The position numbers and the translations under genes are program-made. Below, in pieces: positions 1,555-59,220 of a stretch of DNA of 64,000 nucleotides (its first letter is position 1; each line of letters opens with the position of its first letter). Below the pieces are notes generated by a model. It did no database searches, was not told the origin of the DNA, and saw only the letters and a list, made by a program, of their open reading frames with translations. Source of the stretch: an uncultured Candidatus Peribacteria bacterium (GTDB taxonomy: Bacteria; Patescibacteriota; Gracilibacteria; Peribacterales; Peribacteraceae); contig CAZENR010000009.1 of the NCBI GenBank assembly GCA_964513925.1, positions 476 to 64,475 on the forward strand, written 5' to 3'.

Positions 1555-1628
1555 TACTGGAAAGGATGTTCTGGTGCGTTTTTCGCGTGGGAGGTGAATT
1601 TATGTGTTTTTTGTCCGAGCTTCTATTT

Positions 1629-2016
1629 CCCACTTTTTTAAAAAAGTGGGGTAAAACGTCGCGCGGCAGGCTGGCCTGCGCTCCACGCGCCTTGTGATCC
1701 TAAATTTCTTCGAAATTTCACGGATCACTTCGGCGGGAGCACGACGGCACCAGTCAGATGCGCGACACATCCCTCCGTGTCCAACAATCGAACAGGAACG
1801 AAGGACAAGAATCTGAGCTGCTTCCTTTAGGAAAGAACTCAAGCCACCAAAGGGCGGCGCGCAATGCGCTCGGGGGCCGGAGGTCTGTCCCGCCTCAGCG
1901 GGACGTGGTGGCTCATTGCGCACGCGCTTTTGGTTCTTTTGTCGCTCGGACAAAAGAACGCCTGTATGGATGCCCATCGCCAAGATCAAGGCGGAAGCGG
2001 AGGCTTAATATTTTTT
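1629..2016 (+). ncRNA. structured non-coding element, unknown family, copy 1 (paralogue of 58714-59214)
   Basis: Lies in a 535-nt gene-free gap. Shares with copy 2 a 5' hairpin, a ~190-nt spacer and a ~120-nt core (1841-1959). Stems show compensatory changes, and a 7-nt indel breaks all reading frames. Ends at T-run 2011-2016. Confidence 0.55.
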
Positions 2017-2023
2017 AGCTTTT

Positions 2024-2761
2024 CTAAATCAGCTTTGCAATGTGAAGTAATTCCTCACAAGCAATTCTAAGGCCACCCTGCACCTGATCTATGTCCACTT
2101 TGCGAGCGTTAAATCTACGATTGTGAGCAGAGAGATCTCCCAACTTCTTAAAATCTTGCAATCCCTTTTTAGCATTTCTACTGACAGTAAATGTGGAGTC
2201 CGCCTCAAAAATTTTCAGCAAGTCTGCCAACATATAAAAATGTCCATCACTTCCCTTAATATCAATCGTCCGAGTTTTACTCTCGTATATTTCAATAATC
2301 AGGGTCTCAACAAGACGCCTGCACATAACTGCACAGCAATCATAAAGACCGGAGTCATAACTGGCATTTATCTGTAAAACTACCTTTTCTATGTAGCCCC
2401 TGGTTCCGAGAAAAAGCGCCTTAGGCAAAACACTGTCAGTTGCCTTTGGCTGTTTTGGCAAACCGAGAGTTGACTCGTATGAGATATCTAGCTCTTTTCT
2501 GCCACGAGGGTGCAACCTCCAGTCGTCTTTTTTGCCAGGCACCCGGCTAAACATTTTTTTGTTAGCAGAAAGATTGGCATTAATTCTTGAAATATTCTGC
2601 TTAGGATGACCCAAGTCCAAAAAAACTTTGCAAATCTGCGCAGCCGACATTCCCTGTGTTATATCTTCGCGACCCACATACCACAAAATAGCAGCGGCTC
2701 GGTCAGTAGCTGACAGGTTTATTTCGTCAATTGCCTTAAGGAATGAAATCAATTCAGTCAT
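2024..2761 (-). CDS. wHTH-like N-terminus plus C-terminal DUF4145/HEPN-like domain protein (Abi-like)
   Basis: 245 aa. C-terminal pattern ...CCAVMCRRLVETLIIEIY...LQDFKKLGDLSAHN... resembles the R..GN.aaH signature of DUF4145. Low-GC gene overlapping the upstream ORF by 4 nt (ATGA). Confidence 0.5.
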   Translation of the reverse strand: MTELISFLKAIDEINLSATDRAAAILWYVGREDITQGMSAAQICKVFLDLGHPKQNISRINANLSANKKMFSRVPGKKDDWRLHPRGRKELDISYESTLGLPKQPKATDSVLPKALFLGTRGYIEKVVLQINASYDSGLYDCCAVMCRRLVETLIIEIYESKTRTIDIKGSDGHFYMLADLLKIFEADSTFTVSRNAKKGLQDFKKLGDLSAHNRRFNARKVDIDQVQGGLRIACEELLHIAKLI

Positions 2762-3399
2762 TCATCATTGGAACCCCATTTTTGTGTGCAAAAAGATTTC
2801 GCAATACCTTCTGCTTGCGAAATTTTAGCCGGATTCAAAGTAATGACTCCACCTGGCCTTGCTTGTAGCCACTTAGCATTTTTCACGGCACGACTTGCAT
2901 TGCGATCTGTAATATCAATAGTGAGCAATACGTCAGCAGCATTTGCCTGCGTAGCGTTGCCAAGTCCGGCCTCCTTAAACCAAAGTGCCAATAATGTACC
3001 TGCAAGCGTCGTAGGATTGACTGCATAGGCACCGCGTTCTGGAGTACTTTTCTTCATCGCCTCCCAACAATGACGATCAAGCTGCAAAAAGGGTTTGGTC
3101 TTTGTCGGGTTGATTGCTCCAACCAGCTCAGCCTCTGTAATTCCCAATTTTTTTGCAAATGCAGTAACTGAATTTGCCGGATTCTGATTTGTCGACTGCG
3201 GAGAAAGCTTAGGTGACACTGAGACCTGATTTGCATTGTTCGGCAATGCTACAGGAAATTCTGGCGATTCTGATGTGCTATAAATCACTCCAAGAATTTG
3301 ACGCCAAAGAGCTGGGTCTTCGACTTCTGCAATGACTTTTTCTCCTGCTTTTAGGAGGACTACAAGTTTCTCCTTAGTGGATTTCTGCTTGTTAGACAT
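2758..3399 (-). CDS. hypothetical protein (213 aa), first gene of the low-GC pair
   Basis: ATG start, intact ORF, overlaps the downstream gene by ATGA. No family recognised. Confidence 0.55.
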   Translation of the reverse strand: MSNKQKSTKEKLVVLLKAGEKVIAEVEDPALWRQILGVIYSTSESPEFPVALPNNANQVSVSPKLSPQSTNQNPANSVTAFAKKLGITEAELVGAINPTKTKPFLQLDRHCWEAMKKSTPERGAYAVNPTTLAGTLLALWFKEAGLGNATQANAADVLLTIDITDRNASRAVKNAKWLQARPGGVITLNPAKISQAEGIAKSFCTQKWGSNDE

Positions 3400-6384: not shown

Positions 6385-7527
6385 TTATCGACGAGAGAAG
6401 TCCTTATTTTCGCAAATACGAGTGGAGGTACACTCGCCTTTCACCGTGGCGGATGCCGCATATGCCTTGTTATCCGCACATGCCATGGCAGTAACCGCAC
6501 GATACTCGGTGACCTTGGTGTCATACACCAGCGGCTTTGGTGACAAATCATGAACAACCCCCTTGTCGCGACAGAGCGTGTCGGACACACACGGGCCCGG
6601 ATTTCCGCAGGAGTTGATAAATGCCTCCTTTGCCTCACGCTGAGCGGAAGCCTCGGCCTCGAGTCGGCTGCAGCGCATGGCTACGTTATCTTCGATCGTA
6701 CGCTTCACAGGAGGGCCAGGCGCCTTGGGCTTTTCACCAGGGCGTGTCGGTGGCCGGGTTGGCGGAGCAAGAAAAATGGTTCGCGTGTATTTCCTCATTC
6801 CCGTCCTGCCAGCGGCGGATACCTTCACTGTCCTGTCGACGTTGGCGCAAATGGCGATGCCGACGAACTCGGATGACGCCCCTCCGGAAATCTGCGAAGA
6901 CGAACTTCCAGCATCGTGGTACGGGTCGTTGGACCACGAGAACAAATCATCCTTGGTAAGTTGATACTCGTTTCCGTATTCGTCTGTGACAACTGAGACA
7001 ACTTCATTGTCATACGGAGCCAGGCCGCACACTGCGGAGTCGGACATGACCAGCTCGTCTTCGTTGATGGTGTCGAATTCTTCAGAAGACGATACGGACG
7101 AGGACATCTGTTCCGACGAGGATTCGGAGGAGGCTACCTGAGAAGAAGACTCCTGTTCGGACGATGAAAACGACGATTCGGACGAATACTCCGAAGAAGA
7201 TTCCGAAGAGGACCAGTACCACCCCCAGTCTGAAGAGGAGTACGAAGAATCTGAAGACGCGTAGGAGTACCACTCGGAAGACGCATACGAGGAGTAGTCG
7301 GAGGAGGAGTAGTCGGAGGAGGAGTAGCCGTAGTCCGAGGAGTAGTCGGAGGAGGAGTAGCCGTAGTCCGAGGAGGAATCCTCGGAGGAGGAGCTGGAAT
7401 CACCGCCAAGGTCACCGGTAAGCCGAAGCGACTGCATCATGCTGACCACAACGACAGAGACGGCAATGAACGCCAGAATCCCAGTAGTCACGCGTACGGA
7501 TGTCTGAGACCGCTTTGCGGTAGGCAT
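6385..7527 (-). CDS. membrane-anchored Ser/Tyr/Asp-rich repeat protein with the same C-terminal 8-Cys domain
   Basis: N-terminal TM segment, SSDYSSDYGYSSSDY-type repeats, a Pro-rich insert, then the shared Cys pattern. Confidence 0.6.
   Translation of the reverse strand: MPTAKRSQTSVRVTTGILAFIAVSVVVVSMMQSLRLTGDLGGDSSSSSEDSSSDYGYSSSDYSSDYGYSSSDYSSSDYSSYASSEWYSYASSDSSYSSSDWGWYWSSSESSSEYSSESSFSSSEQESSSQVASSESSSEQMSSSVSSSEEFDTINEDELVMSDSAVCGLAPYDNEVVSVVTDEYGNEYQLTKDDLFSWSNDPYHDAGSSSSQISGGASSEFVGIAICANVDRTVKVSAAGRTGMRKYTRTIFLAPPTRPPTRPGEKPKAPGPPVKRTIEDNVAMRCSRLEAEASAQREAKEAFINSCGNPGPCVSDTLCRDKGVVHDLSPKPLVYDTKVTEYRAVTAMACADNKAYAASATVKGECTSTRICENKDFSRR
7080..7410 (-). repeat. coding low-complexity tandem repeats (Ser/Asp/Tyr/Glu)
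   Basis: Reiterated GTAGTCGGAGGAGGA / GTAGCCGTAGTCCGAGGA units on the plus strand. Confidence 0.8.
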
Positions 7528-11811: not shown

Positions 11812-12115
11812 AGAATAGCGGATTTACTGCAAGATGCACTGAGCGTGACCGCGGTGTGCGCTGCGCGCGGGGTCTACTGGAGGTCGCTCAGCGGACGCAA
11901 TTTCTTGGCCACTTCTTTGTCGCAAACAACGTATTCATACCCGCAGAAGAATCCACCTCACTTTGACAAGTTTTCTATTCTTTTCAGTACAACAACATTT
12001 TTTCCACACAGTGAAACTGCCGCAGAGTGTCGTTTTTCGCTATACTGATATCGAAACGTGATTTTCAAAAGACTATACACATAGCCCTCACTTCCTTTCC
12101 ATTCTCTCTCGTCCC

Positions 12116-20905: not shown

Positions 20906-20983
20906 GGGGCGTCTACTAAAAAAGGGAAGACGCGACTAAAAATGTACTGTATTCTCTCGCGCACGGGCGCCTAGCTCAGTTGG
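20906..20983 (+). repeat. diverged duplicate of the tRNA-Val(TAC) promoter/leader plus first 19 nt of the tRNA
   Basis: About 85% identical to 21001-21077 (offset 94-95 nt). The tRNA-like part 20965-20983 breaks off in the D-loop. Confidence 0.8.
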
Positions 20984-21058
20984 CCTAGCCTCGCAGATGC
21001 GGGGCGTCTGCAAAAAAGAGAAGACGCGACGAAACATGTGATGTATCCTCATGCGCAC

Positions 21059-21135
21059 GGGCGCCTAGCTCAGTTGGTTAGAGCGACGAGCTTACACCTC
21101 GTAGGTCAGGGGTTCGAATCCCTTGGCGCCCACCA
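21059..21135 (+). tRNA. tRNA-Val (anticodon TAC), CCA encoded
   Basis: Cloverleaf read by hand: GGGCGCC/GGCGCCC acceptor, loop CTTACAC, T-arm AGGGGTTCGAATCCCTT. Confidence 0.9.
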
Positions 21136-25611: not shown

Positions 25612-25701
25612 GCCAGAAGTATACCGTGGCAAGGCTCCCCAACAGTCCGAAAACACGCGAAGCTCTTTCGGATTCCAAGGCCCACAGCAAGATCGAACTT
25701 T

Positions 25702-25735
25702 AGGAATCCTGGAATCCAAGGAGTCTTGGAATCCC
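25702..25735. repeat. GGAWTCC array (4 units, 4 GANTC cores)
   Basis: AGGAATCCTGGAATCCAAGGAGTCTTGGAATCC, starting 3 nt from the lepA stop. Confidence 0.8.
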
Positions 25736-36778: not shown

Positions 36779-36983
36779 TTGACTTACGTTTCGTATTATT
36801 ATCTCATAACATTATTAGAAAATCAAGTCTTATTATTGTCAAGAATAGAGCAAAAAGGACGAAGTATAGGCATGGCAGTAGTAAAACGCCAGAGATCTTC
36901 ATTTGGAAAGGGCGGTAACATCCGTTGCGCACTGCACAGCGATCGAGCCGCCAACTCGTACCTCCGGCAGGATGTTGAGAAAA

Positions 36984-37047
36984 GCCGACTGGCGCTTCTT
37001 GTAAGAATCGATCAGAATCCACATCGTCGGGGTGTAGCTTAGTTGGC
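36984..37047 (+). repeat. duplicate of the tRNA-Pro upstream region plus first 20 nt of the tRNA
   Basis: 62 of 64 nt identical to 37083-37146 (offset 99 nt). The tRNA-like part is 37028-37047. Confidence 0.85.
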
Positions 37048-37126
37048 CCAAGTCCTGCCCCAGCGGGACGCTAATAAAAAAGGCCGACTGGCGCTTCTCG
37101 AAAGAATCGATCAGAATCCACATCGT

Positions 37127-37202
37127 CGGGGTGTAGCTTAGTTGGCAAAGCGCCAGGCTGGGGGTCTGGAGACCCAGGGTTCGAGTCCCTGCACCCCGAC
37201 CA
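37127..37202 (+). tRNA. tRNA-Pro (anticodon GGG), CCA encoded
   Basis: CGGGGTG/CACCCCG acceptor, loop CTGGGGG, T-arm CAGGGTTCGAGTCCCTG. Confidence 0.88.
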
Positions 37203-40582: not shown

Positions 40583-40634
40583 AGTGCGGAGATGCTACAG
40601 CAAGGCCACAGGCAACGAAAGTGAAGTGGAATTT

Positions 40635-40677
40635 AGGAATCCTGGAGTCCAAGGAGTCCTGGAATCATCGAGATTCC
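40635..40677. repeat. GGAWTCC array (5 GANTC cores)
   Basis: AGGAATCCTGGAGTCCAAGGAGTCCTGGAATCATCGAGATTCC. Overlaps the stop of 40665..41444. Confidence 0.8.
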
Positions 40678-47400: not shown

Positions 47401-47460
47401 GACTCCATGATTCCTCAAAGCAAGATCGATGATCCGGAAGCCTTGGAGTCCAAGGAGTCA
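47401..47460. repeat. GGAWTCC-type array (4 GANTC cores)
   Basis: GACTCCATGATTCC...CCGGAAGCCTTGGAGTCCAAGGAGTCA, 30 nt after the dnaA stop. Confidence 0.7.
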
Positions 47461-48934: not shown

Positions 48935-48973
48935 TGAATCCGGAATCCTAGGAATCCTGGAACCTAGGGAATC
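48935..48973. repeat. GGAWTCC array (4 GAATC cores) between rseP stop and dnaA start
   Basis: TGAATCCGGAATCCTAGGAATCCTGGAACCTAGGGAATC. Confidence 0.8.
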
Positions 48974-54381: not shown

Positions 54382-57300
54382 ATGCTGCGGCACCTTGCCA
54401 ACGCTCGCCTTGCACCCAAGCACTCTCCCCTTACGGAGCAGCGGCTCGTCTTTTTGCAGAAAACGGGCAATGTGATCCCCGGCTCTGCCCCCGAGGGCGA
54501 AGCTCGCGGACTGGTAGAACTGAGCCGATCTCCAGAGTTAGTCGTACGCAAAATCGGTCGCGATACCCGGTCTCACCTGGGCTTCTTAGACGATGCAGCC
54601 GGCGTGAAAATCGATACGCTCACCGATGCAGAGGTGCAGGCTCTGGCTACACGCAACGTGAATGTGCTGCAGGGCCAGCAACCGGAGCTGCTGCGCGGCA
54701 ACGTCCGGGACGCAGTGACAAACGTGCTCAATGCCGACGCGGGCAAAGAAGGCAGCGTCATGGAACTTTCGCGGGAGACGCGCGACATGATGGACGCGCT
54801 GGAGCAGCTGGACTGGAAGCACGACGCAGCCATTGCAGGCTTTTACGATCGCCACGAGAAGTTGCTGCGCCAGGTGCTGGCACTGCAAGCGGCAACAACG
54901 CGTGTGAACAAAACCGAGCTGGTACTGCAGCTGCGCTACCTCCCGGAAGTGGATGAAGTGCTGGCAAGGCGCAGGGAACGTGCCGAGGAGCTAGCAATTG
55001 CAGAGCAAGAAAAGAAACTTCAGGGCCCTGCGGTAGCAGCGCTTATCGAAGATCTTGCAACGCTCAACTGGCAGGAAGGAGTGCAGGTGGCCACCGCATT
55101 GAGTCGTCATGAGAAACTGCTAGCGCAACTACTTGCTCCGCAGACCTTTCAGGCAAGATTTTCAAACGATCCTTTTGCGCAGCTCAAGTGGGCTCTTGAG
55201 CAGTTACCGCAGCTGCAGGCTCGTGTAACCCGTGCGCATATTGCCGCAGAAGAGCTGCAATTTACTCGCCTTACCGCAGAGAATGATTCCCTTGTCGATT
55301 TGACCGAAGCCCTGGCACAGGCGCCGATTGGAGATGAGCAGGCATTCGAGCGCATACACGACGAGTACCGAAAAACACTGGAGGTGATTTTTGAGAAAAA
55401 TAGCGCATTCATTCCTACCAACTTTTCCAAAATTGATGTTATTACCTGGGCCATTCAGGCGATTCCAGGAATGGCTGCAACAATTGAGCGCAAAAGACAG
55501 GCCTTGCATGAGGCAAAGGAATTCGACGAGCCAGGATGCCAGTACCTCTATGCCGATGAATACCTGGAGCAGTACAGGCAGATGGTTTCTCGCGACAAAA
55601 GCCGCCAGCAGGAGGAAATTGACGCAATGTTGCGAACTCCCCCCTCTGCCTTTCAGTGCGGAAATACCGTGTACTTCAACATCGACCATCCCGAAAGCGC
55701 AGACCCAATTATGGGACCAAGAAGCGCCGCGCACGAGTTAACGCACTTCGCTATTCGCAAGGAAAAGCACGCAAACGCATCGTTCTTTGCAGATATGCAA
55801 AGCGCACTTGAGCAAGTAGGGGCGTGGAGCGATGTACAGCGCGTTGTACGCGCCAGTTTTGGAGAACGAGGAGCTGCGATGAGCGTAGAGGAAATTATCG
55901 AAGAGGCAGCAGCAATCTACGTCGGAGGAGAAAAGGCTCCGTACACGCGTGTCGGCAATGACGGCGAAGCCTCGCAGCTCTGGGAGATTCACCACATGCT
56001 AGCGCAAGCAGCAGCAACAGACGGCAACGTTGCACACTTGCTTCAAGCTATTTCTCGAGAAGTTGATGCGCACTACGACAATGTGCGAGAAAAGCTTGCA
56101 CAAAGCACGGAACAGAGTCAGTACGCAGCGAAGCAACAACGTGAGTACGATGACTTTGTACGCACGAATGCAAAAGAAACCGAAAAAGCAAAAAAAGATG
56201 CCACCGCTGCCATTGAAGATGAAGAAGAGGAGGAAAAGAAAGTCACGCTACATGATGTGCAAATGAAGATCAGTGCGGCAAAGCAAGCATGTGAATCGGC
56301 CAGAGCGAGCTTGCCACTAGTAATGAAGTCGTTGCCCCTCATGAGCAAGGAACAGCAGAATGAAGAGCAAAAGGGCTTGGATTTCGTGCGTAACTTCTTG
56401 GACGAGAACGATAAAGATCTACTCCTTGCCGAGCAGTCTGCAAGTGCATTGGAGCGCTGGGATCTGCCTGAAAACAAGGGTGGCCTTACGGCAAAAGAGA
56501 AGGAGTATTACACCAAGCTATGGAATTTTGGCCCGGATGAGGCAATGAACAAAGAGCTGACAACCAAGGCGTTGAACGAATATGTATCTGGCGTGCAAAG
56601 TGGCATTAAAGAAATTGGGGAATTTATTAACCGAGAGCGCCCAACGGCCAGCGAGAAGGAAGATAAGGGGATATGGGGCAACCTGAAAGAGGTGTTCTTT
56701 AGCAACGGAAAGAATGTTGAATGGGTTTCCTGGAGTGATGCCGTAAAAATCGTTGGCATTTTCAAGGAAGCCATTGTAGCCAAATGGGAACAAGGCAAAG
56801 AACGAAAGGCACACCGCATTGCCGATAAAATCGCACAAGGATCTTGGCTGGCCAAACCCATAGAACATACCCTGAGAAAGCAAGCTCGTGCCGCAAATGA
56901 GAAGCAAACCAGTGAATTCGCTGACTACTTGAAAACTGCAGGTTTGAACTTCGATAGGCTCATGGGGCGTCCGGACGGATTGTACTGGCGATTGAGCAAC
57001 ATCAACGAAAAGAAGGCCGTGCTGGAATATGCGGCAGAAAAAGCCTGGTTGTACGACCTAAGTCCGGTGAACGGAGCCGATGTATACGGCATAGATTTCG
57101 TAAGTGAATTCGGGCCAGAGGCGTTCAGCGAATTGGTGCAGCACTACGAAGAAGGAAAGAAAAAGGAAAGTAAGCGCGGCTACGCCAAGGTGAACCAACG
57201 TCCGGATATTCCGCCGATGATCGAAGATCTCATTCACGAAATGCGCGAGCGCAACATCTTTGCCGCGCACGGTATTTTCCAGCGTATTCAAGAAAAAGCG

Positions 57301-58176
57301 AAGTACACCCACAGCCATACCTGGGCAATTACCACCTTCATCTCCGAGTTGCGAAAAGACCCTCAATTGCTTGCCATCTTGGACAAAGGTCTTCTGGACG
57401 ACATCGGTAACATCGGCATCGGCCAAACAGCATGGTCCATGACAATGTTCAAGTTGTTGCGCACGGAAATGATGGAATGGAAGGCAGGTGCTAAATGGGA
57501 CAATAACGTGCTAACCCGAACAATTAAAAAGATTGAGGAGCGACTGAGTAAGCTCCCGAATGGCATCAAGGAAAAAACAAAAGAAGAGGCTGTTGCCATC
57601 ATTTTGGCTGGAAAGACGTACCAAGACGGAGACGTTACTATTTCCATCTTCCAAAAGGACTTCGACGAGTACCGCAAATGGTGGAAAGAAAACTCTCAAA
57701 GCACAGTGTCTGCAGCCAAAACCGACGATGACTTCTTCCATCCAACTGGATCGGACATCCTTCTGGCGAGCAGCACGATTCTTGACGAACTTGGAACCCG
57801 TGACTCTACCGGTCGTCCAACACATCAAAGCAAGGCGCCGAAATTCTTCAGCATGGTTCGTCAGAGATACGACGAACTGAAAAAGGTAGATCCAGTTGCA
57901 AAAGAGCGGTTCCGCTCAGAAATGCAGGCAAAGTTGAAAAACTGGTTCCGCACTCGCATTTGCTCAAACGCAGCATCTGCACTGCAATTTCCGAATGAGA
58001 CAGACAGTGAGAACAAAAACGTTTTAGAAGAAATGTTGCGTCGAAGGCTCATTATGAAAGAAGATATCGTGGCTAACCTTGGCGGAACGCTTACAAAAAA
58101 AGATGAAAAGACCGGAGACACCAAACTTACTGACTTCGGAAAGTTTGTGGAAGATGCCTGGGCACGACCGCTGTAA
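54382..58176 (+). CDS. giant (1264 aa) largely helical protein with HExxH motif
   Basis: SAAHELTHFAIRKE near residue 450. Long charged or coiled segments and an EEEEEKK tract. Confidence 0.6.
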   Translation: MLRHLANARLAPKHSPLTEQRLVFLQKTGNVIPGSAPEGEARGLVELSRSPELVVRKIGRDTRSHLGFLDDAAGVKIDTLTDAEVQALATRNVNVLQGQQPELLRGNVRDAVTNVLNADAGKEGSVMELSRETRDMMDALEQLDWKHDAAIAGFYDRHEKLLRQVLALQAATTRVNKTELVLQLRYLPEVDEVLARRRERAEELAIAEQEKKLQGPAVAALIEDLATLNWQEGVQVATALSRHEKLLAQLLAPQTFQARFSNDPFAQLKWALEQLPQLQARVTRAHIAAEELQFTRLTAENDSLVDLTEALAQAPIGDEQAFERIHDEYRKTLEVIFEKNSAFIPTNFSKIDVITWAIQAIPGMAATIERKRQALHEAKEFDEPGCQYLYADEYLEQYRQMVSRDKSRQQEEIDAMLRTPPSAFQCGNTVYFNIDHPESADPIMGPRSAAHELTHFAIRKEKHANASFFADMQSALEQVGAWSDVQRVVRASFGERGAAMSVEEIIEEAAAIYVGGEKAPYTRVGNDGEASQLWEIHHMLAQAAATDGNVAHLLQAISREVDAHYDNVREKLAQSTEQSQYAAKQQREYDDFVRTNAKETEKAKKDATAAIEDEEEEEKKVTLHDVQMKISAAKQACESARASLPLVMKSLPLMSKEQQNEEQKGLDFVRNFLDENDKDLLLAEQSASALERWDLPENKGGLTAKEKEYYTKLWNFGPDEAMNKELTTKALNEYVSGVQSGIKEIGEFINRERPTASEKEDKGIWGNLKEVFFSNGKNVEWVSWSDAVKIVGIFKEAIVAKWEQGKERKAHRIADKIAQGSWLAKPIEHTLRKQARAANEKQTSEFADYLKTAGLNFDRLMGRPDGLYWRLSNINEKKAVLEYAAEKAWLYDLSPVNGADVYGIDFVSEFGPEAFSELVQHYEEGKKKESKRGYAKVNQRPDIPPMIEDLIHEMRERNIFAAHGIFQRIQEKAKYTHSHTWAITTFISELRKDPQLLAILDKGLLDDIGNIGIGQTAWSMTMFKLLRTEMMEWKAGAKWDNNVLTRTIKKIEERLSKLPNGIKEKTKEEAVAIILAGKTYQDGDVTISIFQKDFDEYRKWWKENSQSTVSAAKTDDDFFHPTGSDILLASSTILDELGTRDSTGRPTHQSKAPKFFSMVRQRYDELKKVDPVAKERFRSEMQAKLKNWFRTRICSNAASALQFPNETDSENKNVLEEMLRRRLIMKEDIVANLGGTLTKKDEKTGDTKLTDFGKFVEDAWARPL

Positions 58177-58605: not shown

Positions 58606-58713
58606 AAGATCAGTATATGTGAAGTTGCAGATTGATGCTGCCAAAGATTCTCTCTCGGAGAATTAGGGAACCCTGTTCGGTTCCGCATGTTCTTTTTCCC
58701 AAGCGAACATATT

Positions 58714-59214
58714 CCACTTTTTTGGCGCAAAAAAGTGGAGCAAAAAACATGCCGCTGGTGAAAGCGTTCGGCGGTTCTTTTTCGTGCATCGGGGCCTGCA
58801 AACGTGAACTCGCCGCTTCGTCCCCACGAAAGCGGCTCAAACAGGCACGTTTGCTTGCGGCCCCTCTTCACGAAGAACCGCAACGAACCCTTTCAAGGCG
58901 GCGAGAACGAAGAGACTCTGAGTTATATTTTCAAGCCACTAAAGGGTGGCGCGCAATGCGCTCGGGGGACGGAGGTCTGCCTCGGCGGTCGCAACCGCCG
59001 GGCGTGGTGGCTCATTGCGCACGCGTTTTTGGTTCTTTTGCCGCTTGGGCAAAAGAACATATGTCGTGCACAAAGAAGTGGCGGTATGTACCCTCTACCG
59101 GCAGGAGAATAGAGCGCCGCAGTGTTAAAACATCGGCGAAGGCAGGCTTTGCCTGCCTGGAGCCGCACAATCTCAGGGAGAGTCCGCGAGAGGGGTGTAA
59201 CCCCTTTCGCGAGC
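58714..59214 (+). ncRNA. structured non-coding element, unknown family, copy 2
   Basis: Lies in a 672-nt gene-free gap between dut and ftsZ. Has the same 5' hairpin (58714-58738) and core (58933-59058) as copy 1, plus nested helices at 58775-58880 and 3' hairpins. Confidence 0.55.
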
Positions 59215-59220
59215 GTAAAG

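Follow-up and report, generated by a model that had tools for sequence, protein, structure and literature searches.

The stretch of DNA considered here, hereafter the window, comprises 64,000 nucleotides (positions 476 to 64,475 of contig CAZENR010000009.1, assembly GCA_964513925.1) from an uncultured Candidatus Peribacteria bacterium. The closest relatives of its FtsZ and RecG proteins likewise place the host in Candidatus Peribacteria/Peribacteraceae, within the candidate phyla radiation (CPR). The genes of the window are those of a core chromosome and include recG, miaA, tgt, lepA, infB, thrS, dnaA, dut, ftsZ and ftsA. Spread over these 64 kb are three copies or relics of a structured element of about 360-400 bp, all of them intergenic: 1) copy 1 (~1604-1965), flanked by the gene for a 152-aa membrane protein and by a two-gene low-GC insert downstream of recG; 2) copy 2 (~58687-59085), in the dut-ftsZ spacer; 3) copy 3, a relic downstream of miaA. 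We present evidence that this element is probably a lineage-specific, non-coding and non-autonomous mosaic repeat of a narrow Candidatus Peribacteraceae clade, akin to miniature inverted-repeat transposable elements (MITEs) and BOX elements.

Copies 1 and 2 display the same overall order of a leader, a palindrome (H), a long hairpin (V), a linker, a core and a 3' terminal hairpin. The V hairpin has a sequence-conserved base and a replaceable tip, occurs in two types, V1 and V2, and is accompanied by an extra module of 77 nt in some copies. The core is an imperfect hairpin of ~95 nt, of type A or B, which also has a replaceable tip. The features of the three copies are as follows (handles such as L028 and L130 denote loci of relatives):

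1604-1620, plus strand: leader and left terminal inverted repeat of copy 1 (GTGTTTTTTGTCCGAGC), pairing with 1944-1957 through 14 pairs including one G-T
1629-1650, plus strand: palindrome H of copy 1 (CCCACTTTTTT/AAAAAAGTGGG), from a repeat search and motif count
1657-1790, plus strand: long hairpin V1 of copy 1, from the fold, with a conserved base and a hypervariable tip helix
1791-1838, plus strand: linker of copy 1, with the conserved GAACGAAG..TCTGAG and, specific to this copy, a small hairpin, TTCC-TTTA-GGAA; L028 and L131 have a homologous stretch
1839-1935, plus strand: core of copy 1, type A, a long imperfect hairpin (covariance model match 86.6 bits), with a helix of 1857-1866 with 1914-1923, a basal CCAAA/TTTGG, the purine-rich CGGGGGCC..GGAGG and an apical variable hairpin at 1888-1903
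1933-1961, plus strand: terminal hairpin of copy 1, GTTCTTTTGTC-GCTCG-GACAAAAGAAC, whose loop and 3' arm form the right inverted repeat
11853-11929, plus strand: copy 3, a relic consisting of a 5'-truncated, decayed type B core and a decayed H-like hairpin
58687-58705, plus strand: leader and left terminal inverted repeat of copy 2 (ATGTTCTTTTTCCCAAGCG), 19 nt, 95% complementary to 59042-59060
58713-58739, plus strand: palindrome H of copy 2, with a loop of 3-5 nt
58749-58908, plus strand: long hairpin V2 of copy 2, from the fold, unrelated in sequence to V1
58909-58930, plus strand: linker of copy 2 (GAACGAAG..CTCTGAG), from the alignment
58931-59034, plus strand: core of copy 2, type A (covariance model 85.5 bits), with a different, longer apical hairpin at 58980-59002
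59032-59060, plus strand: terminal hairpin and right inverted repeat of copy 2
59062-59085, plus strand: tail of copy 2 (ATGTCGTGCACAAAGAAGTGGCGG), half of an H-like palindrome

An ordered architecture shared by two loci had been proposed in a sequence-only reading of this DNA, and the counts of H and of the core blocks, together with the alignment, place it far beyond chance. The palindrome CCACTTTTTT..AAAAAAGTGG, described as a 5' hairpin common to both loci, occurs exactly twice in the 64 kb (1630-1649 and 58714-58738) versus 0.00 occurrences expected, and two blocks of the core, one of 21 nt and one of 23 nt, have two exact occurrences each versus at most 0.01 expected. A global alignment of the two copies gives identities of 94% and 97% for the core arms and of 83% for the 3' hairpin, but of only 48% for the V region, 38% for the linker and 48% for the apical core hairpin, which are essentially unrelated. 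Thus, the description of the middle as unrelated but strongly self-complementary holds, as does that of a ~120-nt core nearly identical outside its variable hairpin as far as the arms are concerned; the core itself, however, is better drawn as one long imperfect hairpin, in which ~1847-1869 pairs with 1911-1933 and the variable hairpin forms the tip. Similarity between the copies stops directly after the core and terminal hairpin (~125 nt).

The ends of the element differ from those first drawn. Rather than at 1629, the unit begins ~25 nt 5' of H, where a leader reverse-complementary to the loop and 3' arm of the terminal hairpin is located. The resulting terminal inverted repeats match at 12 of 12 positions in copy 1 (1609-1620 / 1944-1955) and at 18 of 19 in copy 2 (58687-58705 / 59042-59060). 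The true right end of copy 2 is probably 59085, since in L130 the rightmost feature is a complete H-like hairpin closed by the same sequence, including the half palindrome AAAGAAGTGG. Only L130 has H-type palindromes at both ends, CCACTTTTTTT..AAAAAAGTGG and CCACTTCTTT..AAAGAAGTGG; its 20-nt end repeat is complementary at 18 of 20 positions (90%) and pairs the leader and an H arm with distal right-end sequence, whereas in copies 1 and 2 the leader pairs with the loop and 3' arm of the terminal hairpin. These inverted-repeat ends, the single-hairpin core, the third core at 11853-11929 and the polymorphism among relatives are all additions to the sequence-only reading. That reading had also found no credible open reading frame (ORF) in the gap holding copy 1; ORFs of 129 aa (minus strand) and 86 aa (plus strand) do cross it, but the gap is non-coding as stated, as a six-frame chimeric protein query of the element against 5.8 billion proteins recovered no homologue and detected no coding capacity.

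Examination of the predicted folds revealed that copies 1 and 2 fold much better than shuffled sequences on both strands (z -5.3 to -9.5) and that the full-length folds are closed end to end. In the H-V1 alignment (n=4: copy 1, L028, L131 and L132) 98% of the cells are paired, and nine pairs have changed on both sides, versus 4.2+/-1.3 in shuffles (0/500) and one in every slid control. Most of the variation in V1 lies near the tip: helix 6 (7 bp) has four different sequences in the four copies with five of its seven pairs compensated, and L132 bears an entirely different, longer tip, the basal V1 helices being invariant. Three further compensated pairs distinguish the V2 hairpins of the window and L130, which are ~79% identical, and another three the core helix, where GCGCAATG/CATTGCGC of type A corresponds to GTGCGCTG/CAGCGCAC of type B (slid controls 0-1). 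The closing stem differs at two positions between copies 1 and 2, both compensated (G-C to A-T and T-A to C-G), and in L130 the end pairing is kept with different sequences. Both the stem covariation and the T-A to C-G change in the 3' hairpin pointed out earlier are genuine. This strong covariation indicates that a folded single strand is maintained, with which a single-stranded DNA (ssDNA) intermediate and a transcript are both compatible. A pairing of AGCCACY with GGTGGCT, also proposed earlier, competes with the better-supported long hairpin; a pseudoknot of AGCCACC/GGTGGCT with GCGCAATG/CATTGCGC was set aside, as the nested long hairpin fits all the substitutions.

Copy 3 was detected because of its 86% identity over 80 nt to the core of L130 (covariance model 68.8 bits), and its fold no longer surpasses that of shuffled sequences (z +1.6). 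Against an expectation of 0.3, the window contains six occurrences of the motif AAARAAGTGG, each of them inside one of the three element copies, indicating that H is not a free-standing unit of the repetitive extragenic palindromic (REP) kind. Over ~200 kb of Peribacteraceae DNA the core covariance model recovered only those copies that BLAST had already given.

Comparison of orthologous spacers in relatives revealed extensive polymorphism. Assemblies from relatives of this lineage are GCA_964434575.1, GCA_964448405.1, GCA_964458645.1 and GCA_035438175.1. Between ftsZ and dut, L029 (FtsZ 83%) has 25 nt from the ftsZ terminator to the dut start codon and L027 (FtsZ 91%) a spacer of ~150 nt with other small hairpins, and neither contains the element. 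In L028 (FtsZ 93%) the same spacer holds H, the 77-nt extra module and V1 without a core, oriented as in the window, and its hairpin is 86% identical to the V1 of copy 1 rather than resembling the V2 of copy 2, which occupies this spacer in the window. In L031 (FtsZ 97%) and L132 (FtsZ 92%) H and V1 are inverted, with H beside the ftsZ terminator, and L132 lacks the core. The other site follows a DUF1622 gene. It is empty in the window, the spacer measuring just 29 nt between mechanically called ORFs, or ~47 nt up to the likely ATG; L130 has here a V2-type copy whose core is of type B, and L131, from the same genome as L028, a V1-type copy that includes the extra module but has lost most of the core. 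Overall, the V1 of copy 1 is 80-91% identical to the V1-type copies in L028, L131 and L031, and the modules are found combined as V1 with A (copy 1), V2 with A (copy 2), V2 with B (L130) and a B relic (copy 3), V1 occurring with or without the extra module and the core. One spacer can thus hold different subtypes in different genomes. Identity between genomes is ~79-86% for the element and ~76% for recG DNA (window versus L130 or L131). Presence or absence, subtype replacement and inversion at orthologous sites argue for a mobile or recombining family and against a fixed housekeeping RNA gene.

Several other small hairpin modules were observed in or near these spacers. The 77-nt extra module contains two hairpins and sits exactly at the junction of H and V in L028 (2720-2796) and L131 (6850-6926), both from one relative; a related sequence follows a tRNA in L029 (18440-18500). 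A hairpin module of the form GGGAACC..GGTTCC, which we term segment A, lies beside dut in the window (58623-58684) and, inverted, beside the ftsZ terminator in L028 (2371-2433), and a longer version is found upstream of miaA in L130 (1-57). Between copy 2 and the ftsZ terminator there is, on the minus strand, a unit of ~100 nt ending in a GGCAGGC..GCCTGCC terminator (59086-59219), counterparts of which follow tRNA genes in L029 (18500-18590 and 4640-4730). This unit may be another small mobile module or a small RNA.

Short-read contigs of the same strain end at the element. In several samples (L001/L002 and L022-L024) Logan contigs or unitigs end exactly at H + 4 nt at both loci (1653 and 58742), and other contigs end at other hairpins, namely at 59142 and in the V1 loop of L031. 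The ends at H + 4 nt could reflect a population that is heterogeneous at this junction, or an influence of the hairpins on coverage or assembly.

Database searches did not connect the element to any described family. At the gathering threshold Rfam 15 recognised only three tRNAs in the whole window and only tRNAs in the loci of the relatives, and permissive scans of both copies returned noise (E>=0.76; best score 20.7 bits versus a gathering threshold of 55); these scans, a check proposed beforehand, uphold the earlier statement that no known RNA family is recognisable. Exact 18-mers of the core gave 14 matches in GTDB genomes, 98 in JGI metagenomes and 4 in IMG/VR, all of which proved to be chance matches after BLAST extension. 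The element must therefore be absent or diverged in those collections, or lost from them at contig breaks, and the contigs that end at the element probably explain this outcome. BLAST against plasmids and phages gave no match to the element, and the literature on repeats and MITEs of Peribacteria or the CPR yielded nothing relevant.

Taken together, we favour, with some margin for doubt, the view that this is a new lineage-specific family of a familiar sort, namely non-autonomous structured intergenic repeats, and not a new housekeeping RNA. The features that it shares with MITEs are terminal inverted repeats (12/12, 18/19 and, in L130, 18/20), small size, absence of coding capacity, several copies and insertion polymorphism. 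Under this reading, movement or rearrangement of the element would depend on an enzyme acting in trans from another locus, or on recombination between copies; evolution would have preserved the single-strand fold, be it of an ssDNA intermediate or of a transcript, and any influence on adjacent genes, for instance by terminating or stabilising transcripts, would be incidental. The sequence-only reading had set a structured RNA against a plain MITE, recognisable by terminal inverted repeats and target-site duplications without stem covariation. The terminal inverted repeats are indeed present, but covariation is strong and no convincing target-site duplication is seen.

Several observations weigh against the mobile-repeat interpretation. 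The sample comprises seven copies or fragments from five genomes. No convincing target-site duplication is evident at copy 1, copy 2 or L130, and no exact empty site is alignable: copy 2 is flanked by ATGT/ATGT, which however overlaps an inverted repeat, copy 1 by ATGT/CTGT, and L130 has none. Transposases, integrases and reverse transcriptases are lacking among the ~50 window proteins scanned. The inverted-repeat sequences differ among members, a pattern uncommon among ends that transposases bind and closer to that of a structural closing stem. Moreover, the L028 and L131 copies, though from one genome, are only 88% identical, indicating an old family rather than a recent burst. Finally, the subtype replacement and inversion at one locus could stem from recombination between copies and not from transposition.

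The foremost alternative, which we consider possible but unlikely, is a family of expressed structured non-coding RNAs transcribed from the plus strand, in which the hairpin bases would bind a protein, the tips would provide copy-specific antisense or guide specificity, and mobility would be secondary. The strong covariation, with invariant stem bases and hypervariable yet always compensated tips, is what such a family would be expected to display, as are core arms that remain 94-97% identical although the tip is replaced, and end-to-end pairing whose sequences differ from member to member. On the plus strand the core stem can accommodate its three C/T differences as G-U pairs, and a T run follows the core hairpin, flagged as terminator-like in copy 2 only. 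However, compensated changes, especially near the tips, can also arise in DNA palindromes through template switching without selection on an RNA. Nor is there a strand bias: when 1x1 mismatches are counted without bias in five copies folded with Watson-Crick pairs only, G-T and A-C occur twice each, and the strand favoured by whole-element fold energies differs between the two copies, so that the earlier argument from T-G pairs for a plus-strand RNA is weak. A promoter scan found no sigma-70-like promoter in either copy, no 9-mer complementarity links the interior of the element to its flanks, and decayed, internally deleted or core-less copies are tolerated (copy 3, L131, L028 and L132). We regard as more doubtful still a special form of this idea, a mobile expressed RNA with the V and core tips as specificity determinants, that is, a programmable or antisense-type gene-less cassette of a CPR lineage; copies would exchange their tips by way of H, the linker and the core arms, which offer conserved junctions. 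Two related candidates were rejected: a riboswitch or leader of the downstream gene, as orientation and distance to the neighbours vary, and bridge-RNA-like complementarity, on account of the missing 9-mers between the element interior and its flanks.

We would also give little weight to a domesticated cis-acting module, of the type of REP sequences, bacterial interspersed mosaic elements (BIMEs) or BOX elements, which would be co-transcribed with adjacent genes from its minus strand and would serve to terminate transcription, insulate or stabilise mRNA. This is in keeping with the intergenic position of every copy and with the gene maps of six of eight copies or fragments, in which the plus strand is antisense to co-directional flanking genes and the minus strand would thus be part of the operon transcript. 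Likewise, the same spacers contain the other hairpin modules (segment A, the 59086-59219 unit and the 77-nt extra module), which recur in relatives and produce a BIME-like mosaic. Against this, the orientation is opposite at the same locus in L031 and L132, ftsZ has its own terminator outside the element, relatives function with spacers of tens of nucleotides, and the distance to the downstream start codon varies (~143, 109 and 30 nt).

Far less credible is a gene-less element of the IS200/IS605 type, that is, a palindrome-associated transposable element (PATE), in which H would represent the end hairpins and the core with the terminal hairpin an omega RNA scaffold of TnpB or IscB with its guide in the right flank. 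The H-type palindromes at both ends of L130, the lack of a target-site duplication and the ~125-nt core and terminal hairpin, right after which the similarity between copies ends, would suit it. But the element has inverted-repeat ends, which IS200/IS605 elements lack, no tetra- or pentanucleotide is conserved in front of the left end, the scanned window proteins include neither a Y1 transposase nor TnpB or IscB, Rfam gives no HEARO or omega-RNA match, and core-less copies persist. An invertible DNA switch (inverton), with the segment between inverted repeats flipped by a site-specific recombinase, can practically be dismissed: although the unit is flanked by inverted repeats, is found in both orientations at ftsZ-dut among close relatives and coincides with unitig ends at exactly H + 4 nt at both loci in several samples, the window encodes no invertase, no promoter was detected, the two orientations come from different genomes and not from one population, and sequence outside the repeats also differs between genomes. 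A retron does not fit, there being no reverse transcriptase adjoining the copies, whose neighbours are dut, ftsZ, the membrane protein, DUF1622 and a DUF4145-like protein, and the template and variable repeats of a diversity-generating retroelement were rejected as the differences between copies are not adenine-specific. Since the PATE/omega RNA, the retron and the inverton are each contradicted in at least one feature that defines them, we file the element with repeats of a known sort.

The low-GC island reported beside copy 1 is real (GC 0.42 at 2001-3000) and corresponds to the insert at 2024-3399, whose two genes code for a protein with weak similarity to DUF4145 / PtuB-like proteins and for an unknown protein. 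The slot downstream of recG is occupied by a KAP NTPase in L130 (8866-10164) and by a GmrSD-type protein with a GmrSD_N domain in L131 (12085-13359). The slot is thus variable and, going by the names of these Pfam domains, may hold defence genes; with different genes in the window, L130 and L131 it resembles a small defence-gene hot spot. The insert adjoining copy 1 fits a recombination-prone spacer, a functional link between the two being unsupported.

Additional features were noted elsewhere in the window. 1) A protein of 1264 aa without a Pfam domain (54382-58176) is kept beside dut in all the relatives examined (1261-1511 aa). 2) Degenerate tandem repeats of 15-21 nt (GGAGGAGTAGTCGGA-like) at 7273-7404 lie within a minus-strand ORF (6385-7527), which suggests that its product, lacking any Pfam match, is a low-complexity repeat protein. 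3) The 25-nt motif TAGGAATCCTGGAATCCAAGGAGTC occurs in four short intergenic spacers (25701-25725, 40634-40658, 47435-47459 and 48949-48973) and flanks dnaA on both sides. 4) A direct repeat of 43 nt, 93% identical and with the internal hairpin GGCAGCACAGGGTGCGCTGCC, flanks the ORF at 495-902 (418-460 / 949-991). 5) Upstream of tRNA-Val(tac) and tRNA-Pro(ggg) the promoter region and the first ~19 nt of the tRNA are duplicated in tandem with 88% identity (20918-20983 versus 21012-21077 and 36965-37047 versus 37064-37146), and ARAGORN and Rfam call only the complete downstream tRNA.

CPR genomes are small and streamlined, and little is known of their repeats and non-coding RNAs. The family described here breaks short-read assemblies and creates variable intergenic spacers beside core genes (ftsZ-dut and recG), which lie within ~10 kb of dnaA for copy 2 and within ~46 kb for copy 1, and it offers an unusually clear case of structure conservation, in which stem bases stay constant and tips are replaced. 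A transcribed element would amount to a mobile structured RNA whose specificity modules behave like cassettes; an untranscribed one would be a useful strain-level marker and call for caution in the binning and synteny analysis of these genomes.

Among the systems that invite comparison, the msr-msd of retrons is similar in that its ends pair (a1/a2-like) and that a long variable hairpin accompanies a conserved structured portion, but our element has no adjoining reverse transcriptase and is about twice the usual size. The PATEs of the IS200/IS605 group and omega RNAs are alike in the hairpins near both ends, the absence of a target duplication and a structured end block of ~125 nt; they differ in that the present element has inverted-repeat ends and that no target motif, partner genes or HEARO match were found. 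The bacterial MITEs, such as the Correia/NEMIS elements of Neisseria and bcr1 of the Bacillus cereus group, have terminal inverted repeats and no ORF and span a few hundred base pairs. They share with the element insertion polymorphism, a strong predicted fold and compensatory changes, whereas the latter has neither a clear target-site duplication nor a conserved inverted-repeat sequence, its copies are old and mosaic, and no parent insertion sequence is known.

The closest architectures are those of BIME/REP arrays and BOX elements. The REP/BIME and ERIC (enterobacterial repetitive intergenic consensus) sequences of enterobacteria are intergenic mosaics of palindromic units and short motifs, variable between strains and with structural effects on transcripts; REPs are units of 20-40 nt, present in hundreds of copies and linked to REP-associated tyrosine transposases (RAYTs). 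The element resembles these in a mosaic make-up that varies at orthologous sites, but it is ~10 times larger than a REP, no RAYT was encountered, and its H never stands alone in the window. In Streptococcus pneumoniae the BOX elements, composed as boxA-boxB(n)-boxC, are gene-less and intergenic, are regarded as MITE-like and are transcribed with their neighbours; their terminal modules are mutually complementary, so that the whole unit is a long stem-loop with variable internal modules. Like them, the Peribacteraceae element is gene-less and modular with pairing ends; it is unrelated to them in sequence, its middle is a replaceable long hairpin in place of a variable number of boxB modules, and it has a second conserved hairpin, the core, an apparently low copy number and a CPR host.

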